Virus record (IMG/VR): IMGVR_UViG_3300043444_000523
Coordinates: 32,001-96,000 of that record
Strand: one strand, 5' to 3'
DNA length: 64,000 nucleotides
Origin: a virus
Shown here: one piece after another, positions 3,415-36,172 of the stretch
How positions within the stretch are numbered: position 1 is the first letter of the stretch
Layout of the letters: each line of letters starts with the position of its first letter
Made by a program: the position numbers and the translations under genes
The notes under the pieces: model-generated
Seen by the model: the letters and a program-made list of their open reading frames with translations, nothing else
Told to the model about the DNA's origin: nothing
Database searches by the model: none

Positions 3415-3879
3415 TTAGAAGGTAACTGAGAATGATCCGTTGGATTCAATCGACACAGAAGCACGAGCCACGGCATTGCTTGTAGCAGTGCTAAGCCGAA
3501 TATCGGCAACACGGAATGTGATCGTGAAACTTGAACCGCCGCCGCCAAGAGCAAATACCATCGAAATGCTCTGCCCTTGAGTTAATCCAAGAGAACTGTT
3601 GTAAGGCCCTTCGACAGTGCCCTTACACGCGAAAATGCCAGCCTCATTCGACTGATAACCGCTAGATGTAAAATTCGTTGTCGGAATGATTTCTGCTGGG
3701 AATGACAAGTCAACCTTGTCCATCGGCTGAGAAGTTGCGCTCCAAGTCCAGCTACTCGCCTTTCCCGGATAAAAGGTGCCAAGCAGAAGAAGAAACGGCA
3801 GCAGCAAGATTAGATAATCAAGCCACTTATCAGCGTCTTTCAAAAACTGAAATAATTCAAACATTTCTTCTCCTATCAC
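3415..3879 (-). CDS. Major tail (tube) protein; start uncertain
   Basis: Beta-rich Ser/Thr/Gly sequence (FYPGK...TTNFTSSGYQ...SIESNGSF); position upstream of the chaperone. Confidence 0.65.
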   Translation of the reverse strand: MIGEEMFELFQFLKDADKWLDYLILLLPFLLLLGTFYPGKASSWTWSATSQPMDKVDLSFPAEIIPTTNFTSSGYQSNEAGIFACKGTVEGPYNSSLGLTQGQSISMVFALGGGGSSFTITFRVADIRLSTATSNAVARASVSIESNGSFSVTF

Positions 3880-9696: not shown

Positions 9697-10635
9697 CTAA
9701 TTGTTGACGACCACTTCGCCTGTCATCGCGTATTGCTTGCACTGTTCCCAAGTCGCCTTGGGGTTTTTCTTCATGTAATCGCGGGCTTTGTCCAAAGAGT
9801 CCTTGCCGAATGCTTCGCCCTTGCCGCTGTTGACCTTCTGGTCAGTGATCTGGAGGAAGTCGCCAATCGGCGCGCCCTTGGCCGCGTACTGGACTGCTTC
9901 GTCTTTTTCCCAGTAGGCAAGAATCTGAGCTGCTTCTGCTTTGCGAGAGACCTCGTTCATGCCAAGCAACTTCTTCTTGATTTCGGCTTTCTTCTTTGGA
10001 TCGCCGAGTGCTTTGACACCAGCATATTCAAGCTGGTAGATGAGGTTGTCCGTGTCTTTTTCAGCGGCCTTGAGAGTCAGCTTGGCCAACTCCGCGTCTT
10101 TCTTCGTGCGGTCGCTCTTGAGGCTGGCAATCTCTTGCCGAAGCCCACCAATCGCGTTGGCAACCTGCTCAAAGGCCTCAGCATAAGTGATGACCTGATC
10201 GCTGTTTTGCATCGCAAGAGCCTCTTCGGGTTTCTGTTCACCTTCCGGCAGCGGGACTTCTTCAGCACCGCCGCTCATTGCTTCCTGAGTGGCCGCTTCT
10301 TCAGCCGCCTGTGGATCAACAGGCTGCTCTTCTTGACCGCCTTGGTCAGCCATCATGTGTTCGTAGAGTTGTGCCAGACCGTACAGAGTCGGATTGGTCT
10401 GGAGTGCGTATTCAAAGTTGGCCAGCCATTCCGCATGACCAGGAGGTTCTTGCGGACCTTGCTCAGCACCCATGTCCATCTCGGCATCGGGAGTAGCAGC
10501 CTCGCCGCCGCTCTCTTCCTCGCCTTCGTAGGATTCGGATTCGTGGCCTTCACGCTCTTCGCGGTCTTTTTTCTCTTGCTCTTCGTCTCTCTCGTCAGCC
10601 ATGATGGCCCCTTTGGAGACCTTGTTATCGGCCAA
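9697..10635 (-). CDS. Capsid scaffolding protein
   Basis: Acidic N-terminus, coiled coil, helical C-terminus, between protease and capsid genes. Confidence 0.65.
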   Translation of the reverse strand: MADNKVSKGAIMADERDEEQEKKDREEREGHESESYEGEEESGGEAATPDAEMDMGAEQGPQEPPGHAEWLANFEYALQTNPTLYGLAQLYEHMMADQGGQEEQPVDPQAAEEAATQEAMSGGAEEVPLPEGEQKPEEALAMQNSDQVITYAEAFEQVANAIGGLRQEIASLKSDRTKKDAELAKLTLKAAEKDTDNLIYQLEYAGVKALGDPKKKAEIKKKLLGMNEVSRKAEAAQILAYWEKDEAVQYAAKGAPIGDFLQITDQKVNSGKGEAFGKDSLDKARDYMKKNPKATWEQCKQYAMTGEVVVNN

Positions 10636-23458: not shown

Positions 23459-24049
23459 GTGAAGCTACTCTTGAATAACTGGAGAACGCCAGCAACCGGA
23501 TACAAGCTGAAAACACTCGGCTGCGCGTCCATCGTCGCAACCGAATACCCCAAGGGCGTATATCCGATGCACGGTGAGTCCGGCTTCTCAGACTTCCAGT
23601 GCCTCAGTCCGATCCGAATCACCATGCTGGCCATCAATGAACACGTTTCGATGTGGGACGAGCCTCCTCATTGGTACGGCATCCAGCGATGTGCCAGGGC
23701 CATGCACGGGAAAGTCCTTGTCGCTGGCCTCGGTCTTGGCCTAATCGCCCATGCCCTCAAATGGAACAAGGCTGTCCGCGAAATACTGATCATCGAAAAC
23801 AACCAAGACGTTATCGACCTCATCGGCCCCATGTGCCCACGCTCGGCACAAATCGAACACGCCGACTGGTATCGATGGGAAGGCCGATTCGAGCCAGATA
23901 GCGTACTCATGGACTTGGCAGATGGCGATTACACCAAAGAACGTGTGGCCGACGAAACCGAGAAATGCCGACAAAGGTTCCCATCGGCGACAACGATCTC
24001 CGTCCACGGAAGCGTAGAGTCTAGGCAGAACGAGATGAGTGCTTTCTAA
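23459..24049 (+). CDS. SAM-dependent methyltransferase-fold protein (spermidine synthase-like)
   Basis: KVLVAGLGLG...IIENNQDVIDL. Confidence 0.7.
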   Translation: MKLLLNNWRTPATGYKLKTLGCASIVATEYPKGVYPMHGESGFSDFQCLSPIRITMLAINEHVSMWDEPPHWYGIQRCARAMHGKVLVAGLGLGLIAHALKWNKAVREILIIENNQDVIDLIGPMCPRSAQIEHADWYRWEGRFEPDSVLMDLADGDYTKERVADETEKCRQRFPSATTISVHGSVESRQNEMSAF

Positions 24050-24111
24050 CAACGAAAGGAGATTTCGTAAACAACCCCACGGCTGAAGCCGGGGGGCTTT
24101 GCCGCTGGGTT

Positions 24112-25185
24112 TTAGCCCGCGACTTTTGGGGCCGGTTTACTGACGGCCCAAGCCCTCAAATTGAGGGCAGCGTTTCGGTCGGCATTTGTGGAGTGCCCGC
24201 AATGTTTGCAGACAAACTCAGACTGGCTCTTTCGGTTGGCACGCTCGCAGTGGCCGCAGACATGGCACGTCTGGGAACTGTATCGCGGGTCAACCAAGAC
24301 TACGGACACGCCTGCCCGTCGGGCCTTGTACTCCACAAACTGCCGAAGCTGAAAGAAACTCCAGTTGCCAAGTCGTCGCCGGAAACGCCTAGAAGCCGTT
24401 TGCTCACAACGGTCACGCAAACCGGAGAGGTTCTCCAGAGCGATACCGATGCCGAGTGTCTTGGCTTTGCCGACAAGACTCTTGCTGATGGCGTGGTTTA
24501 CCCATGCTTGATAGCGGGACTGCCGCCCCGCCATCCGCTTCAACCGTCGCTTGGCAGACTTGGTTCCTTTCCGTTGGTACTGCTTACGGGCTGTCATCCG
24601 GCGCTTGCGGTTTCGTTCGACACCCGCACCGGAGAACGATTCCCCGGTGGAGTCGGTAGCAATCTGGACAATGCCAAAGTCACAACCCAAGTATTCGGTA
24701 ACCGGCTGTGGGTCGGAAACGGTCGCCTTGACTTGAACATGCAGAAAGTAACCGCCATCGCGTTTGACAAGTGCAGCGCTGGTCGGAACCTTCCCCGCAA
24801 GCGCGGTTCGCTGAAAGTCGCCAAGTTGGGTCGTCAGTCGATGCCGCCCATGCAACAGGGTCAGGCTGAAAGTCCAGTCGGATTCTCGGAAGGAAAAGAT
24901 TCGAGCATCGTAGTTCACGCTCGTAGGAGCAAATCGGGAGAGGTCTTTTACGGCGGCAACGCGACCGATGGCACGAACGGCCAGATTCGCCGACAGCCCG
25001 AACGCAGTCCGCGTTTCGCGGTAGGCCAATTTGTGCAGAGCGAGATGTCCTTTAGTCTCTGTCTCTGCCGCACGACGAACCAAGTGATTGCACGCCGCAG
25101 CGAAAGCCACAAGTGTAACGTCGATTTCAACCGCCTGTTCAGCGGTCGGAACCAGCTTGCAACAGATGGTACGGATGGCTTCCAT
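24112..25185 (-). CDS. tnpB: RNA-guided endonuclease TnpB
   Basis: RuvC D (LGCDFG), E (IALENL), Zn finger (CHVC...CKHC), D (NADRNAA). Confidence 0.92.
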   Translation of the reverse strand: MEAIRTICCKLVPTAEQAVEIDVTLVAFAAACNHLVRRAAETETKGHLALHKLAYRETRTAFGLSANLAVRAIGRVAAVKDLSRFAPTSVNYDARIFSFRESDWTFSLTLLHGRHRLTTQLGDFQRTALAGKVPTSAALVKRDGGYFLHVQVKATVSDPQPVTEYLGCDFGIVQIATDSTGESFSGAGVERNRKRRMTARKQYQRKGTKSAKRRLKRMAGRQSRYQAWVNHAISKSLVGKAKTLGIGIALENLSGLRDRCEQTASRRFRRRLGNWSFFQLRQFVEYKARRAGVSVVLVDPRYSSQTCHVCGHCERANRKSQSEFVCKHCGHSTNADRNAALNLRAWAVSKPAPKVAG

Positions 25186-25578
25186 TCAGACACCCTTCTG
25201 GTTCTCGATGTACTGCTTGATAACGGCCAGAGGCGCGCCGCCAACAGTCGCGACAAAGTAGGAGTTCGTCCAGAGCGATGGCAACCGGCTACGCAACGCT
25301 GGGTACTCCGTGCGCAGGAACCGGGACGAACGGCCCTTGACCAACTTTATCAGCCGGTGGATTCCGAACTGTGGATCGACTTCAACGAGCAGATGTACGT
25401 GATCGGGCATCACTTCCATCTCGATCAGTTCCGAACGGGTTTCAAGGATCACTTCCCGAATCAGATTCTTGAGCCGTTCATCAACGCCGTCGATCAAGAC
25501 CTTGCGACGATACTTGGGGCAGAAAACAACGTGGTACTTGCAGCAGTAGGACACGTTGTTATTGCTCTTGAGCCTCAT
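25186..25578 (-). CDS. tnpA: IS200-type Y1 HUH transposase TnpA
   Basis: YHVVFCPKYRR, DHVHLL (HUH), LWTNSYF, YIENQ. Confidence 0.95.
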   Translation of the reverse strand: MRLKSNNNVSYCCKYHVVFCPKYRRKVLIDGVDERLKNLIREVILETRSELIEMEVMPDHVHLLVEVDPQFGIHRLIKLVKGRSSRFLRTEYPALRSRLPSLWTNSYFVATVGGAPLAVIKQYIENQKGV

Positions 25579-25684
25579 TCCTGTATTATACACGTCCGAG
25601 ATGTCGAATGCCACCTCAGTAGCGTGGATTCGCCGTCTCCATTCCTCCCCATGCCTGAAGGCAGGGGTTTCTTGGAGACATTTC

Positions 25685-25780
25685 ATGAACAGCAAAGCCA
25701 AATTTTGGTTTGTGTTCGCTATTGTGTCTTCATGCTTTTGTGCGTTCTTATTCTCAATCTACTCATGGAAAGTCTGGTAG
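25685..25780 (+). CDS. Small hydrophobic peptide (31 aa) at the IS insertion site
   Basis: MNSKAKFWFVFAIVSSCFCAFLFSIYSWKVW; GGAG RBS present with and without the IS. Confidence 0.4.
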   Translation: MNSKAKFWFVFAIVSSCFCAFLFSIYSWKVW

Positions 25781-25795
25781 TGGCTCAACATGGTG

Positions 25796-25823
25796 TTGAC
25801 AACCTGGACGACCCTGATAGAGT
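25796..25823 (+). promoter_or_regulatory. Sigma-70-like promoter for the second tnpB (probably leaderless)
   Basis: TTGACA-N16-TAGAGT, GTG 7 nt downstream. Confidence 0.55.
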
Positions 25824-25830
25824 TATCCTT

Positions 25831-27006
25831 GTGCTGAAAACGATTACCTATCGTCTGTACCCGTCGCGGGAGCAGGAATCTTTCCTGTTCTACTTCCTCT
25901 ACATTGGCCGCAAGATTTACAACGACGCACTTGCCGAGCGCGTCCGGTTCTACAAAGACACTGGCAAAAGCCTGACTAAATTCACGCAACAGATGGACCT
26001 GACGATACGCAGGTCAATTAGCCCGGTGCTTGCCTCTGTCCCTGTCTGGATTGAGCGAGACTCCCTGTCTAGGATAGACAAGGCATTCGCCAATTTCTTC
26101 CGCAGAGTAAATGAAGGGAGTGCCAAGCCTGGGTTCCCGCGATTCAAGTCAGCCAATCGCTGGAACAGTTTCTCAATGCCTATCCAAGGCAGTGGCAAGA
26201 AACTGGTGCAAGGAAATAGAATCCGCGTGGCCGGGATTGAAGGAACAATGCCAAGCCGTGGCGGGCAACAAATACTTGGAAAGATCATTGTCCAGAGAAT
26301 TGTTCATCGAGCAGGCAAGTGGTTCTGCAAGTTCGTAGTTGATGACAAACTCGACCCACCGCCTATTCATCCTGTAAAGTCGGCTATCGGCGTCGATGTT
26401 GGTCTGAAATCGTTTGCAACGCTTAGCAACGGTTCAACGATTGAGAATCCACGATTCTATCGGGGACTGGAACTCAAGCGTGCCCATCGCAACGTGTCTC
26501 GTAAAATCAAAGGCAGTCGGAACCGATGGAGAGCCGTTCGTCGTCTTCAATCGGTTTATGAGAAAGTCAGAAACTTACGCCACAATTTTACGCATCACGA
26601 GAGCAAGAGGATTGTCAATGACCACCAACTGATTGTTGTCGAAAAACTGAACATAGCTGGCATGGCCAGAAGCCGATTTGCCAAAAGTATCTTGGACGCT
26701 GCATGGGGTCGGTTCATATTTCAATTGCGTTACAAAGCTGAAAACGCTGGTTGCGCATTCGTTGAAGTTGACCCCCGTGGCACAAGCCAAGATTGCAGCA
26801 AGTGCGGCCAGACCGTGCCAAAGAAGTTGTCGGATCGTGTCCATAAATGCTCTTGCGGTCTCGTGCTAGACCGCGACCATAATGCGGCGTTGAACATCCT
26901 TCAGCGTGCCGTTCGATCAGCACCCGGCCCCGGTAGGTGGATCGGTAAAGCGTGTGGAGAGGCTACGAAGACTCGGCGAAACACGAAGGCTTCAACACCA
27001 TGTTGA
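25831..27006 (+). CDS. tnpB: Orphan TnpB-family RNA-guided nuclease
   Basis: N-terminal YRLYP, PGFPRFKS, RuvC D (IGVDVG), E (VVEKL), Zn finger, D (DRDHNAA); the 937-aa ORF-track call is an artefactual extension. Confidence 0.88.
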   Translation: MLKTITYRLYPSREQESFLFYFLYIGRKIYNDALAERVRFYKDTGKSLTKFTQQMDLTIRRSISPVLASVPVWIERDSLSRIDKAFANFFRRVNEGSAKPGFPRFKSANRWNSFSMPIQGSGKKLVQGNRIRVAGIEGTMPSRGGQQILGKIIVQRIVHRAGKWFCKFVVDDKLDPPPIHPVKSAIGVDVGLKSFATLSNGSTIENPRFYRGLELKRAHRNVSRKIKGSRNRWRAVRRLQSVYEKVRNLRHNFTHHESKRIVNDHQLIVVEKLNIAGMARSRFAKSILDAAWGRFIFQLRYKAENAGCAFVEVDPRGTSQDCSKCGQTVPKKLSDRVHKCSCGLVLDRDHNAALNILQRAVRSAPGPGRWIGKACGEATKTRRNTKASTPC

Positions 27007-27096
27007 GCCACTACCGAAGTGTTCTACAATAGGCGTCATTCGCATGTACGAGCGATAGGCAAGCCGAAATGCTTGAGAAGAAGAAAGGAAACAACA

Positions 27097-27711
27097 ATGG
27101 TTCGTAAAATTGGAAGAATCCAGTTCCCGGTTTTTTCTGGAATCCGCTGTTTGATGCTCCCTTATATTCAAGGAGATTCAAAAAGCGTCCCGCATGAGTA
27201 TGGTCATGGATACGAATCAATACTCGACGACCTTTATGTCAGGAAAGGGGACATCGGGTTTTTGACAATTGACGAATCAATTGCTCATTCTGGATCGCCG
27301 CATCGCGGAGCGAGAGCCAAGCATGGACGGGCATTGCATACAGAGGCAGGTCGTCATCCAGACATGGTGTACGCCTGGGGTGGCGGGAATTGGGGCGGCT
27401 CCAATAGAACAACGCTGAGCAGAGATGTTAAGGTTCTCATTTCAAACAGCATCGACAAGACTTGCGCTGTTTGGGATGCAGAGCATGAAAACACTACCAT
27501 TGACGGGGACATTGGGTATTTGAGTGATCGTTATCCTTACGATTCTGCGATGTTCATGATGGCCGGTGAAGTGTACGAGATCGGAATCCTGACTCCACAC
27601 GAAAGCCTTCCAGTCAACCAAGACACAAGGCGGCAGTTTATTCGCATTGTGTCGTCTGGGGTGAATGGAAGAGAGCCGTATTTTACCAAGAACAGGCTTC
27701 TTGATTACTAG
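27097..27711 (+). CDS. Putative 2OG-Fe(II) oxygenase-fold protein
   Basis: HxE (LHTE) ... distal H (TPHES) ... R (RQFIRI) spacing. Confidence 0.45.
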   Translation: MVRKIGRIQFPVFSGIRCLMLPYIQGDSKSVPHEYGHGYESILDDLYVRKGDIGFLTIDESIAHSGSPHRGARAKHGRALHTEAGRHPDMVYAWGGGNWGGSNRTTLSRDVKVLISNSIDKTCAVWDAEHENTTIDGDIGYLSDRYPYDSAMFMMAGEVYEIGILTPHESLPVNQDTRRQFIRIVSSGVNGREPYFTKNRLLDY

Positions 27712-27718
27712 GTTGCCA

Positions 27719-27958
27719 AAGAAATAGGCGCAACTCGCGCCTATTTCCGCCTCCCCCACAGGCTGACCTTCTTTTCGTCTCTTCGGGGCGGCTCGTCTGG
27801 TATACTTGCAGGCGAGCCCCTCTGTCCCCTGCCTCCGATGCCGATCCGTGCGCCCATCGTCTGGTCTGTTCGTGATGCTCCGGTTTCTATGCCAGCTAGT
27901 GAAGCAACTCCGAAGTCGGCATGGAAGTGGGCCAGATTGAATGCGTCCATGCCGTCTG
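27719..27958 (-). repeat. Inverted, diverged copy of the terL 3' end (pairs with 30939-31178)
   Basis: 240 bp, about 89% identical by hand alignment, reading frame intact. Confidence 0.92.
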
Positions 27959-28027
27959 ACAAGCGAAAGAAACAGCACAAGTTCAAGTGCAGACGATGCC
28001 ACAAAAAGGCGTTCCTAGAAGAGCCAA

Positions 28028-29350: not shown

Positions 29351-31156
29351 ATGTTAAGTGCCTCCGAACTCGCCGAACTTGAAGCCTATCTCCCGCACGC
29401 CAATGAAGATGAACGTCGGAAGATCAACGAGTATCTAGTCTCCATCCGCAAGGTGGAGAACAACTTCCCTTGGGCCGCATACCGATACGATCCAATCGGC
29501 TATGCGTACAACGTCCTTGGCCTCACGTTCCTTTCCGACGATCAGAAGATTGCACTGCGAGCGGCTGTAACGCCTCCGTACCGAGTGCAAATTGACGCCG
29601 GAAACGCTGTTGGCAAAAGCCTAACCTGCGCCGTCTTGGCCTCATGGTTCTACGACTCATATGACCCAGGCTGCGTTTTCACTACGGCCCCGACGCACGA
29701 TCACGTTGTCCGCGTGCTCTGGGCGCAAATACGCTCGCTTAGGTCCAATGCCAAGATGAAGCTACCGATGGACTTCATCGGGCCAGCTGCACCTGAGATG
29801 CGATCATCGGAATATCACTTTGCAAAAGGCCTGACCGCCTCGAAAGGAGAGGCGCTCAAAGGTTCTCACTTGCAGAATATGTGCTTCATATTCGACGAGT
29901 CTGAAGCATTGCCGGTGATGTACTGGGAATCTGTTCGCACGATGTTTAAGCCGCAGCCGGGTATGCTGTGGCTATCCGTGGGCAACCCGACAACCACCAG
30001 CAGCGCTGCATTCCTTGAGTCCACTCGCACGGATGAGAACAAGAAGCCGTTCTGGCGCAACCTGCGCATGAGTGTGCTCAATCACCCAAACATCATAGCT
30101 GGTCTCCAAGGGCTTCCGCCGCCAATCCCAAACGCCGTCGATGTCGGCATGGTGGATGACTGGGTGCGACGACTATGCACGCCTCTCGATGAAAAAGAAG
30201 AAAAAAAAGCCACTGACTTCCAGTGGCGAGGAAGATGGTATCGGCCAAGCGGTGAAGCCGAGACGGTCATTCTCGGCTGTCGCCCGTCAACAGGAGCATC
30301 CGGCGTTTGGTCAGACTCGCTCTGGGAAGCCTGTTGCCATCTCGATTTGCCGTTCCCAATCGATCAACCACCCGAACTTGGCTGTGACGTGGCCAGAGTC
30401 CTTGGTGGCGATGATTGCGACATTCACGCACAATGGGGCGGCAACTCTCTCGCCCATGACTCTGCCAATGGCCGCTCTATACCAGCTACCATCGCTCGTC
30501 TCAAAGAGATGGCCGAAGAAGTATGCGAGTTTGCCAACGCCAAGAGAAAGGAACTTGTGGCCACTGGCAAATACTCACCCGAAGAACTCTCCAGGGCTCA
30601 AATCCACAAGCCGTGGGTTCCCAAAGAAATACCTGTCAAGATCGACGATTGCGGCATCGGCAACGTCATCACCGACTTTGCAGACGGCTGGAACTTCATC
30701 CCAGTCAACCCAGGCTGGGCTGCAAAGCAAGACCTACGTTATCCCAACGTCCGAAGCGAGCTGTGGTTTGAGACCCAGGAGAAGGCCATACTGTTCGGCC
30801 TCAGCATGAAGCACCTGTCTGAAGATGATCAGCAGATGCTGCGTATCCAATCCTTTGCGCCAAAGTGGGAGTTGGATGCTAGACGCCGACGAGTTGTTGA
30901 GAGCAAAGAGGACACAAAGAAACGACTTGGCCGCTCGCCAGACGGCATGGACGCATTCAATCTTGCCCACTTCCATGCCAACTTTGGCGTGGCCTCATTG
31001 GCAGGCATCGAAACCGGAGTATCACGAACAGACCAGACGATGGGCGCACGAATCGGCATCGGCGGCAGGGGACAGAGGGGCTCGCCTGCGAGTGTTCCAG
31101 ACGAGCCGCCTAGAAGAGACGAGAACAAAGTTACTCTGTGGGGGAGGCGGAAATAG
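29351..31156 (+). CDS. terL: Terminase large subunit
   Basis: Walker A (AGNAVGKS), Walker B (FIFDE), coupling motif VGNP, nuclease LGCDVAR...SPDGMDA. Confidence 0.93.
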   Translation: MLSASELAELEAYLPHANEDERRKINEYLVSIRKVENNFPWAAYRYDPIGYAYNVLGLTFLSDDQKIALRAAVTPPYRVQIDAGNAVGKSLTCAVLASWFYDSYDPGCVFTTAPTHDHVVRVLWAQIRSLRSNAKMKLPMDFIGPAAPEMRSSEYHFAKGLTASKGEALKGSHLQNMCFIFDESEALPVMYWESVRTMFKPQPGMLWLSVGNPTTTSSAAFLESTRTDENKKPFWRNLRMSVLNHPNIIAGLQGLPPPIPNAVDVGMVDDWVRRLCTPLDEKEEKKATDFQWRGRWYRPSGEAETVILGCRPSTGASGVWSDSLWEACCHLDLPFPIDQPPELGCDVARVLGGDDCDIHAQWGGNSLAHDSANGRSIPATIARLKEMAEEVCEFANAKRKELVATGKYSPEELSRAQIHKPWVPKEIPVKIDDCGIGNVITDFADGWNFIPVNPGWAAKQDLRYPNVRSELWFETQEKAILFGLSMKHLSEDDQQMLRIQSFAPKWELDARRRRVVESKEDTKKRLGRSPDGMDAFNLAHFHANFGVASLAGIETGVSRTDQTMGARIGIGGRGQRGSPASVPDEPPRRDENKVTLWGRRK

Positions 31157-31805
31157 GCGCGAGTTGCGCCGATTTCTTCTTATCAAGCATCTCAGTCAAA
31201 TGCTTCCGAATGGCCGAATTTTGGTCATCGCATTGCTTATTGTAATCGAACAAGTCTTCGGGACTGTTGAAGAACATCCTGCCTACCAGTCGTTGGTCTT
31301 CTACGCGGAATCTGTCGTCTTTGTCAATGAAGCAGAACTCTTTCTCTGATGAAGCCACCAGCCTGAACTGGTTCCCATCGCTATCAAACACCGTCATGTT
31401 CACGCCAAACACGCAACCAGGATGCTCAGGGTCAGGAAACTTTTCACGAGCGTCTCGAATGTCTTTTGCCGACAGGCAGACCTCGGTATTGTGATAAACA
31501 AGCACAATCGTCTTCAGTTTGCCCCAGTCCAAGACGGCCTTGTACCGTATCGATTCATAGTCTTCGCCGAAGCCCGTGTACGTAAAGCCATAAGCGGCCC
31601 CGACGCAGTTGTCGTCATAGAAGACAATCTCGCCGGAGAACGGAACCTGATCGCCGTCAAGCGACAGGCCACGCTCCATTTCAATCCAATATGTCTCAAG
31701 ATGGCAACCAAGGCTCTTCGTCTGGTACTGATGGCGCGCATCCTTGATGAAGTTCGCCTTCTTCGGCAGCGGCGCAGTGCAGATGATCGTGTCATACATT
31801 CCCAT
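31131..31805 (-). CDS. Hypothetical phage protein (MGMYD...YQTKSL type)
   Basis: Common phage motif, GGAGG RBS. Confidence 0.6.
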   Translation of the reverse strand: MGMYDTIICTAPLPKKANFIKDARHQYQTKSLGCHLETYWIEMERGLSLDGDQVPFSGEIVFYDDNCVGAAYGFTYTGFGEDYESIRYKAVLDWGKLKTIVLVYHNTEVCLSAKDIRDAREKFPDPEHPGCVFGVNMTVFDSDGNQFRLVASSEKEFCFIDKDDRFRVEDQRLVGRMFFNSPEDLFDYNKQCDDQNSAIRKHLTEMLDKKKSAQLAPISASPTE

Positions 31806-34252: not shown

Positions 34253-36172
34253 CAAGATTCCAGAATCCATAATCGGCGCATTTCGCGCCTATTAGTTAGG
34301 AGAGCCTAATGGCCAAAAGCGGTCGTCAGATGATTGGTAGATGGACCGTGTGCTTTATTCCTGCAAGGTAGCCGAAGCACCTTGAGAGAAGCGGTCAACA
34401 GACACTCAGGATTCCACGCAAAGGCCATTCAAAAAACAATCATGGTTTCAGAATTACTGAACTTGCAGTCCCAGGTTGTCAGCATTGGACAGGGCCTGGA
34501 AATTGGTTGATTGGTTTTGAATGTGAACCGCCGACCCCACGGAAGGTCGGGTTCCTGCTGGTGGATACGCACAGCGGCTTGTGAGCCGTTGTGCTGCAAC
34601 CGATTTGCCGCTCGTTTGGTTTGATTGGCTGAATTGGCTGCACACGCCGCCGATATGGGCGGCTCGCTGGGCCGATGGACCCCGGCTTTCGGAGAACCAC
34701 TCCAGACCGCTCCTGGGCTTCAGTCACCCTGGGCAGCGATGGGATTAGATTAAAGTGGCTGCTTTTTTCGGCCCAAGAATCCTTCATGTCGCCTTCTGGC
34801 AAACGAGCTTTTTCCCACTAGACAGAAATGCTGAACGTGCTACACTAACACTGTCAGCTTTGGTAGTGGCCACCGGGTGCTCGTAAAACAACCCGGTGGC
34901 CACGTCTTTTTACCACATCCGCCAAGCATGTCAACGCAAAATCATCTTGGCTTTTTGGATTTGTTCTTCTTGGTTGCCAGCATCAGCGACTTGCGAGCTG
35001 CACGAAATTCCCGTTTGTCTCGGCATTGCTGCTGGTACAGGCCTTCAGGATCGTGGACATGGCAGAACCATTTGCCGTTTCGAACTCGGTCTGCGTGGAT
35101 AGGGCAATCCAGGCCCTTTGTTGTGGTCGCTGAGCATTGCATAATCATCTCCTGTACTTCGCTGCTCGCCGTCTTGATGCTCCTCTGCCGTTTCTTCCAA
35201 GGATGCACTTGTTGAAAGTGCATCTATTCCCGTACCTGTCATCCTTCTTGATCGGCCAGCCTTCCTCAAGGAACCTTGTCAGCACCATAAACTCCCAGCC
35301 GTGTTTAGTTACAATGCTGTAGTTCGGCTTGTGAATCGAAACCTCGCACCGCGAAACCTCAGAGTCCATTGTTGCGCGATGCTCTTTCCACTTCGTTTCG
35401 CCAGCACGGCGAACGAACCCAGGAGTTCCAGCATTGATCTTTAGGCCACGCATATTTTCAGGGTAGTGTATTCTTACACACCATTCAAGACATATCTAAA
35501 GAATATGATAAGCCTACAGGAACGGGAAGCGCGCAAGAACCCCTGGTTATTGGGGGTTCCTGCGCTTTCGCAAGCCGTACAGTATACGGTATAGCGGCGT
35601 AGCACAAGCAACTTCAATCATAGACGAGCTATGACGCCGGACCAATCCGGTTGAGGACGTGCTTGATTAACCTCATCCTCGGAGGTTTAGTGTTTAGCCA
35701 CCTCCCGTTGCCTCTGCGTTGGCCAGAGGGCTTAATTCCCTATCGAGATTCAGGCGGATGCCCGCCAAAGTCGTCGCATACTGGCCTTGTGGCCAAGCCC
35801 TGGGCAAAGACAAACCACCCAGGACGGGCAGATCGGTTCCCACGTTTCCTGTGGGACTGGCTTCGTGAACCAAGGGCGGTATAAGCCCTCACCGTCTGGT
35901 CGCTGCACTTCCTGACTACGGCAGCAAAATCGTATTCCCAATTGTCCCCGCAGGGCGGCTAGGGAGCCGAATTTTCTCATTCAGGGAGTTTTCAATCGTT
36001 TTAGGGGTTGCCACCGAGACGTGCATCTGTTAAGGTGCATTTGTCTCACAGCAGCCGCGTTGCTTGTGAACCAGTGCCCCGGAGTGTTAAGCTCGCGGGG
36101 CACAATTCATTTACACAGCATAACACACTTCCAAGCCATTGCAACACAATTCAACGGAATTCTTCCCCATCG

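Follow-up and report, generated by a model that had tools for sequence, protein, structure and literature searches.

The question raised by this locus is whether a perfect inverted repeat that encloses a phage-borne tnpB gene marks the ends of a mobile element or whether one of its arms is a guide that the TnpB protein aims at its own promoter. The DNA under study, hereafter the window, is a stretch of 64,000 nucleotides (nt) that corresponds to bases 32001-96000 of the linear 104.7-kb virus record IMGVR_UViG_3300043444_000523 in IMG/VR (completeness about 87%). The original prediction, made from the letters of this stretch, proposed either a domesticated, self-regulating TnpB with the right arm as its guide or a new inverted-repeat-bounded or invertible TnpB cassette. 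The 24-nt inverted repeat most likely marks the ends of the cassette and not a guide directed at the cassette's own promoter; the reading that we favor, and regard as reasonably probable, is that of a 1,240-bp mobile unit (25776-27015) of the IS200/IS605 superfamily that comprises tnpB and an omega-RNA scaffold, has ends that are inverted copies of each other and takes its guide from 27016 onward. The features that are needed to follow the argument are, from left to right:

25776-25799, plus strand: left arm of the repeat and candidate left end, GGTAGTGGC followed by the hairpin TCAACA (25785-25790)-TGG-TGTTGA (25794-25799).
25796-25823, plus strand: promoter-like site, TTGACA (25796-25801), 16 nt, TAGAGT (25818-25823); score 10/12, with TG before the second hexamer.
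25831-27006, plus strand: tnpB, 391 amino acids (aa), GTG start, stop codon at 27004-27006, RuvC triad and zinc-finger cysteines kept.
26915-27015, plus strand: inferred scaffold of the omega-RNA (approximate 5' limit), coinciding in part with the 3' end of tnpB and having motifs in common with locus L006 (the nearest relative compared at the DNA level; TnpB with 51% aa identity).
26988-27009, plus strand: predicted terminal scaffold hairpin GGC(T)TCAACA-CCA-TGTTGAGCC, from the RNA fold; contains the tnpB stop codon.
26992-27015, plus strand: right arm of the repeat and candidate right end, most of the terminal hairpin plus the tail, with the final ACTACC at 27010-27015.
27016-27035, plus strand: predicted guide GAAGTGTTCTACAATAGGCG, phage DNA directly outside the element.

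The repeat itself is directly established. Positions 25776-25799 read GGTAGTGGCTCAACATGGTGTTGA, and the exact reverse complement (24/24 nt) lies at 26992-27015; the arm has two matches with up to 3 mismatches in the window, compared with 0.00 expected from 100 shuffles, which bears out the perfect 24-bp inverted repeat of the original prediction. A third copy of the arm is absent from the whole 104.7-kb record, and a search with the arm yielded no match in IMG/VR and only chance-level matches in plasmids (18-21 nt, E about 4). That the repeat is perfect, unique and sharply bounded counts in favor of the mobile unit. Both arms contain the hairpin TCAACA-NNN-TGTTGA, and their loops (TGG and CCA) and tails are mutually complementary; in inverted form, the left arm reproduces the right-end module exactly. 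The earlier statement that no IS605-type end hairpins are present is wrong, the hairpin in the right arm being longer still in the RNA fold. Neither does the right arm lie straight after GGCTTCAAC, as had been stated: it starts within this motif, with TCAAC shared between the two. The cassette flanks read ..GGAAAGTCT on the left and GAAGTGTTC.. on the right, with no direct repeat around the arms. No target duplication of 3 bp or more was found there, in agreement with the earlier reading of these flanks, and the flanking 8-mers, GAAAGTCT and GAAGTGTT, are identical at only 4 of the 8 positions. A TA duplication may be hidden within the ends (GG-TA-GTGGC..GCCAC-TA-CC).

The gene and the integrity of its catalytic residues are likewise observed directly. 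The protein contains the Pfam domains HTH_OrfB_IS605, OrfB_IS605 and Cas12f1-like_TNB, scores 267 bits with the NCBIfam model guided_TnpB, and scores higher with IS200_TnpB than with IS607_TnpB. In an alignment of 22 sequences (A1), which consists of the cassette TnpB and 21 homologs with 51-67% identity, the RuvC residues D189, E271 and D349 and the zinc-finger cysteines are all invariant, so that the intact RuvC D/E/D residues reported earlier are confirmed. Judging from its sequence, the cassette TnpB is probably an active, compact phage-borne nuclease. In a tblastn search of plasmids and phages with this protein the best matches do not exceed 41% identity (<=41%), and a close TnpB homolog is absent among 401 Chloroflexota genomes.

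The predicted promoter of tnpB connects the left arm to the gene. The first 4 bases of the -35 box TTGACA come from the left arm, the hexamer straddling the inner end of the arm, and the overlap between the two that the original prediction described is thus real. The GTG start codon lies 7 nt past the -10 hexamer, a spacing which suggests that the tnpB mRNA is leaderless, and the promoter-like layout in L006 (TTGCAA-17-TATGAT-7-GTG) matches that of the cassette. The right arm is part of a similar site that points out of the cassette:

27003-27030, plus strand: outward promoter-like site, -35 TTGAGC in the right arm and -10 TACAAT in the flank, upstream of a phage gene that starts at 27097.

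The evidence that carries the favored reading comes from the right end. The cassette and L006 have in common the scaffold motifs CCGGTAGG, GTGGAGAG and CTCG(G/T)(C/T)GAA, as well as a covarying closing stem, CGTGT/ACACG in the cassette and GACG/CGTC in L006. At the position of the terminal hairpin, L006 has a hairpin of other sequence, GGTTCG-ATCAAAG-CGAACT, followed by the identical tail ACTACC; that hairpin and tail are common to the two loci is a direct observation. ACTACC coincides with the outer edge of the cassette's repeat, and past it the cassette and L006 agree at only 3 of 30 bases. Read most simply, the hairpin and ACTACC would close both the scaffold and the element, and the guide would start at 27016. 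As far as can be judged from sequence comparison, the right arm probably supplies the final part of the omega-RNA scaffold and, at the same time, the right boundary of the element. No Rfam family matches the cassette's scaffold, and a scan of viral contigs for a scaffold motif gave 95 chance matches, none of which adjoins a tnpB gene. L006 has no inverted repeat and no complementary upstream site. It does contain a 9-nt direct repeat, CTACAAGAT (1383-1391 and 2639-2647), with one copy directly after ACTACC and the other 6 nt upstream of the -35 box; 9-base direct repeats are frequent in such windows, and only the position of this one is noteworthy. It could have arisen as a target duplication, or the guide could partially match the region upstream of its own gene.

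In the position of the hairpin and in ACTACC, the right arm corresponds to the homologous right end of L006, and it would therefore belong to the element. This argues against an origin of the arms as the two halves of a phage hairpin, such as a terminator, into which an IS605-type element was inserted next to a target-adjacent motif (TAM) in the loop. In favor of such an insertion, deletion of 25800-26991 would leave a perfect 48-bp palindrome right after a stop codon, many terminator-like palindromic repeats occur in the phage, and the absence of a target duplication is what IS605 insertion predicts. However, the other palindromes of the phage belong to a different sequence family, and the left end of the inserted element would shrink to 31 nt without a hairpin. 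Furthermore, phage relatives with an empty site were sought via both flanking genes and none was found, one of the genes having no relatives and the other occurring in 6 phages without synteny. Taken with the homology to L006, these points make insertion into a palindromic phage site highly unlikely.

The cassette would share the plan of its right end with canonical relatives, in which GAGAAGCC is followed by a hairpin, an 8-10-nt tail that ends in ..GTCAC, and then unrelated flank. The homology between L091 and L288, which are 82% identical and reside in the same genome, extends through GAGAAGCC-hairpin-AGCATGTCAC and breaks exactly after ..GGGGAGCATGTCAC, with compensatory changes between the two hairpins. 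In Fanzor elements that are bounded by terminal repeats, the repeat and the target duplication lie inside the guide-RNA scaffold, the guide lies beyond, and the RNA ends have been measured (PMC10711439). The predicted guide of the cassette is placed by analogy with these systems and with L335, which is described below.

We looked for inverted repeats between the upstream region and the 3' end in roughly 200 loci with tnpB, taken from metagenomes, from genomes and from viral contigs. Paired repeats are absent in about 190 of the 200 (~95%), L006 included, and the expectation that homologs carry co-varying paired repeats, on which the original prediction had staked its proposal, is largely refuted. 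The exceptions split into two groups, one (A) with terminal repeats and target duplications and one (B) with a cassette-like layout. In group A, a Binatia chromosome (G001, which holds L120) contains at least 8 complete tnpB-only copies of 1.16-1.22 kb (e.g., L173, L179 and L285) that are 66-80% identical to each other and are all bounded by GGGAATTATATACTTTAGTCAC and its inverse, i.e., by 22-23-nt terminal repeats. Target duplications of 7-8 bp are present in 5 of the 8 copies (CGTAATAC, CAACAAAG, AGAAACTT, TGTTTTG and TTTGATT). In the orientation of tnpB, the base directly 5' of the 8-bp target is a G in 7 of 8 copies, frequently as part of ATG or TTG, compared with 2 of 5 on the mirror side; this one-sided G suggests a TAM for a guide that starts outside the repeat. 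An autonomous partner that shares these ends was not found in the Binatia genome, and a 6.8-kb interval between two repeat copies, which was considered as an autonomous element, proved to consist of a host leucine-rich repeat (LRR) gene and tnpB fragments. Related repeats bound tnpB in the phage loci L306, L314 and L315 and in L141. The tnpB-only element L007:389-1547 has an 18-nt inverted repeat, GGCTTTGCCCAATAATTC (1 mismatch), which we take to resemble IS903-type ends, and a perfect 9-bp duplication, ACTCCAGAA. Both in the Binatia family and in L007, the scaffold region ends with the right repeat. The right repeat of L007 lies only about 60 nt past the RuvC-III motif, which leaves little room for a canonical scaffold.

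These comparisons bear on the proposal of a self-targeting guide, under which the scaffold ends at ..GGCTTCAAC and the guide, ACCATGTTGAGCCACTACC, base-pairs with the left arm over the -35 box, resulting in repression of the cassette's own promoter or in cuts at both ends. Several features speak for it: GGCTTCAAC resembles the canonical terminal motifs GTCAAC, GTCAC and TGTCAA; the inner edge of the repeat meets such a motif in L120 (TGTGAC) and L141 (TGTCAA) too; the remaining 19 nt of the arm have the length of a typical guide; and the left arm overlaps the -35 box. Yet ACTACC and the hairpin are kept in L006 past the point at which the scaffold would end, which is unexpected for a guide, and L006 offers no complementary upstream site. 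With an intact catalytic triad, binding would amount to cleavage of the phage's own genome. The TAM position at the left copy holds TCAAC, the same as the element's own right end, which a normal element must spare. The one-sided G 5' of the duplication in 7 of the 8 Binatia copies points to a target outside the repeat, and about 95% of the homologs lack paired repeats altogether. We accordingly consider self-targeting improbable, and the domesticated, self-regulating TnpB of the original prediction is not supported in view of the scaffold homology, the intact triad, the bases at the TAM position and the roughly 190 of 200 loci without pairs. In a combined version, to which we assign an equally low probability, the arm would be at once the element end and a loaded guide, given that a tail of canonical appearance, ..TTCAAC, directly precedes it, such that both ends are recognized, with autoregulation or transposase-free excision by cutting as the outcome. 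Were this the case, the inverted right-end modules in the cassette, L335 and L346 would mark an undescribed TnpB lifestyle.

L335 and L346 make up group B. In L335, the canonical 9-nt tail, reverse-complemented, and the hairpin make up a 29-nt inverted repeat, and there is no duplication. Two solo fragments in that record (G404), 10478-10621 (144 nt) and 34747-34808 (62 nt), confirm the right boundary: they are 5'-truncated omega-RNA right ends that stop at the same base. These fragments may have arisen by incomplete homing or by repair, and the sequence that follows them also occurs more than once in the record. In L346, a 64-nt inverted copy of the right end (62/64; 1943-2006 and 3582-3645) lies 495 nt upstream of tnpB, with no open reading frame (ORF) between and no duplication. 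If it were co-transcribed, this upstream copy would form a long duplex with the omega-RNA. By contrast, the left and right end hairpins of canonical elements (L021, L156 and L123) are direct repeats. The repeat-bearing TnpBs are 33-43% identical to each other, no closer than they are to canonical TnpBs, and symmetric ends therefore arose repeatedly.

The existence of solo fragments lends itself to a less functional explanation, namely that the left arm of the cassette is a right-end stub left by an inverted second copy or by aborted transposition or repair, the true left end being lost and the arm having no function. The L335 record indeed contains solo right-end stubs (62 and 144 nt) with exact right boundaries, and its second tnpB copy has no such inverted stub; moreover, the inverted stubs differ among the three loci, being 24, 29 and 64 nt long and lying 31, 179 and 495 nt from the tnpB start. 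On the other hand, the phage record holds no other copy or stub that could serve as the source, the arms of the cassette are identical in 24 of 24 positions, the stub ends exactly at the hairpin foot in 2 of 3 cases, and the left arm of the cassette adjoins the predicted promoter. The flanks are also not reproduced by a simple deletion or a nested insertion; an origin of the left arm by nested insertion was rejected because no inverted copy continues into the right flank. A dead remnant thus appears rather unlikely.

The points that weigh against a mobile unit with working ends should be set beside this. No target duplication, second copy or cognate transposase was found for the cassette, the mobility of which is therefore putative. 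The alignment that defines the scaffold end comprises two sequences, L006 being the sole relative with more than 45% identity that was compared at the DNA level, and L006 is without an inverted repeat; an alternative alignment would end the scaffold with ..GGCTTCAAC (26996), a motif that resembles the canonical tails ..GTCAAC and ..GTCAC. The second tnpB copy in the L335 record, which is 88% identical to the first, lacks the left arm, and such left arms may be remnants rather than working ends. Joints indicative of excision or inversion were found neither in the assembled contigs of the source sample nor in four 151-nt pieces from a second study, contigs being blind to rare forms.

The mobile cassette that we favor would work as follows. 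A single 24-nt module, consisting of a short hairpin and a 9-nt terminal tail, would make up each end, in exact copies of opposite orientation. The right module would provide the hairpin and tail with which the omega-RNA scaffold closes, and hence the right end, with the guide read from phage DNA from 27016. The left module would serve as the outer boundary, as the stop codon of the upstream ORF and as half of the -35 box of a strong tnpB promoter. By analogy with IS605 TnpBs, for which such an effect has been shown, TnpB and the omega-RNA would cut phage genomes that are free of the cassette (at a TAM followed by GAAGTGTTC...), and cutting of such uninterrupted sites would favor retention and spread of the cassette, including homing among co-infecting phages. 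Mobilization would require a transposase in trans: a single-strand enzyme of the Y1/HUH type would agree with the hairpin-plus-tail ends and the lack of a target duplication, and a DDE enzyme with the symmetric ends that begin with GG. The upstream ORF that would be affected by the left module is the following:

25685-25780, plus strand: hydrophobic phage ORF of 31 aa between two TnpB elements, with the TAG stop (25778-25780) provided by the left arm.

Removal of the cassette would join ..AAAGTCT to GAAGTG.., and this ORF would then stop at a TGA formed across GTCT|GA; the insertion would therefore have cost the phage one extra codon.

Among known systems, the closest in composition are the tnpB-only members of the IS200/IS605 superfamily (IS1341-type; Karvelis 2021, PMC8612924), with which the cassette shares the type of TnpB, the lack of a target duplication and the lack of a transposase gene inside and would also share a predicted scaffold over the 3' end of the gene and a right end made of a subterminal hairpin and a short tail. 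Canonical IS1341-type ends, however, are asymmetric, their hairpins being direct repeats without terminal inverted repeats, whereas the left end of the cassette is an exact inverted version of its right module. In its symmetry the cassette resembles solo TnpBs, which, like DDE-associated TnpBs, lie between inverted terminal repeats and are mobilized in trans (Altae-Tran et al. 2023, PMC10691335): in both cases the ends are symmetric and inverted and the 3' end of tnpB is less than 250 bp from the end of the element. The inverted-repeat-bounded TnpB cassette of the original prediction accordingly holds as a description but not as a new kind of element (Altae-Tran 2023, PMC10691335). Symmetric-ended solo families were verified here in the Binatia family, L007, L306, L314 and L315. 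In contrast to these, which have duplications of 8-9 bp, the cassette has none, and no DDE partner with matching ends was found for it; its arms are an IS605-like right-end hairpin module, whereas the repeats of the verified families are AT-rich, of the GGGAATTATATAC type. Fanzor elements (Yoon et al. 2023, PMC10711439) have the repeat inside the scaffold, as we read the right arm of the cassette, but they encode eukaryotic or viral proteins and have target duplications and measured RNA ends, whereas the cassette is known from its sequence.

Two further comparisons concern the arms. REP, BIME and REPIN units are acted on by RAYT Y1 transposases (PMC3479197, PMC3116915). The cassette ends bear a resemblance to them, and it is a resemblance only: on each strand they read G-GTAG-(T)GGC-hairpin as inverted units, with CT 5' of the left unit. 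Unlike REP and BIME units, those of the cassette are single-copy, lie 1.2 kb apart and enclose a gene, and the left GTAG is 4 nt from the hairpin foot; the phage record contains no RAYT gene. TldR proteins, said to have been described by Wiegand et al. in 2024, are reportedly nuclease-dead, TnpB-derived, RNA-guided repressors that have lost the RuvC residues, target host promoters and have no flanking element ends. A TnpB relative that binds a promoter via its guide is the point of likeness, but in the cassette the triad is intact and the sequence that matches the promoter is most likely scaffold and not guide. We found no description in the literature of a left arm that is an inverted IS605 right end without target duplication. 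The cassette is distinct in the absence of a duplication, in its IS605-type hairpin-plus-tail arms and in its phage setting beside a second, canonical IS605 element.

If the cassette is indeed a mobile unit of this type, it would be a further instance of TnpB and its guide-RNA module traveling in symmetric-ended elements with the end sequence built into the scaffold, and the twist of the left end prompts one to ask which enzyme mobilizes such cassettes. The corresponding rule for annotation would be that an inverted repeat over a tnpB stop codon is an element boundary and not a guide. The cassette also provides a predicted scaffold end and guide start that are directly testable.

A neighboring element bears on the enzyme that could act on the cassette ends:

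24067-25684, minus strand: separate complete IS200/IS605 element, tnpA at 25186-25578 and tnpB at 24112-25185, with boundaries checked by eye.

The Y1 transposase of this element (PF01797, 3e-42) scores 144 bits with the IS200-type model compared with 33 bits with the REP model; its gene, 250 bp upstream, is the sole Y1 gene in the record. The term "orphan", applied earlier to the cassette TnpB, is therefore misleading, a Y1 gene and a second tnpB being located directly upstream as a separate complete element. The end hairpins of the neighbor (TTCA loops, minus strand), CCCCTGCCTTCAGGCATGGGG near 25648-25668 and CCCCCCGGCTTCAGCCGTGGGG at 24079-24100, are direct repeats of each other; the right end finishes ..TTGTTTAC at 24067, and the target motif TCAT lies at 25685-25688. 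These GC-rich TTCA-loop hairpins are unlike the TCAACA-NNN-TGTTGA hairpin of the cassette, and the record contains no Y1 TnpA with hairpins that match the cassette ends. A DDE partner with cassette-matching ends was not found either, and the record has no IS6-type DDE transposase. IS6-type ends were considered and rejected: there is no IS6 transposase in the phage or in the Binatia genome, and the IS6 copies in the genome that holds L141 have unrelated ends. The neighbor has inserted in front of the 31-aa ORF and separates the ribosome-binding site AAAGGAG (24056-24062) from the ATG (25685); the guide predicted for this element corresponds to about 24047-24066, read as the reverse complement.

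The window contains other repeats that are separate from the cassette. A 247-nt inverted repeat (27719-27965 and 30932-31178, 89% complementary) brackets about 3 kb that include the gene for the terminase large subunit. In the Logan assembly of the source sample, both ends of a 3,434-nt contig (27732-31165) map to 27732-27965 with 0 differences, and two long contigs of the source-sample assembly end at 27756; the 247-nt arms may be identical in the reads, or the bracketed segment may be present in both orientations. Finally, about 11 palindromic repeats of 25-29 nt (AAATAGGCGCGAGTCGCGCCTATTT type), unrelated to the TnpB arms, lie between genes (8938, 15898, 17057, 20760, 27719, 31148, 34268, 44632, 44660, 44792 and 52042) and are probably bidirectional terminators.

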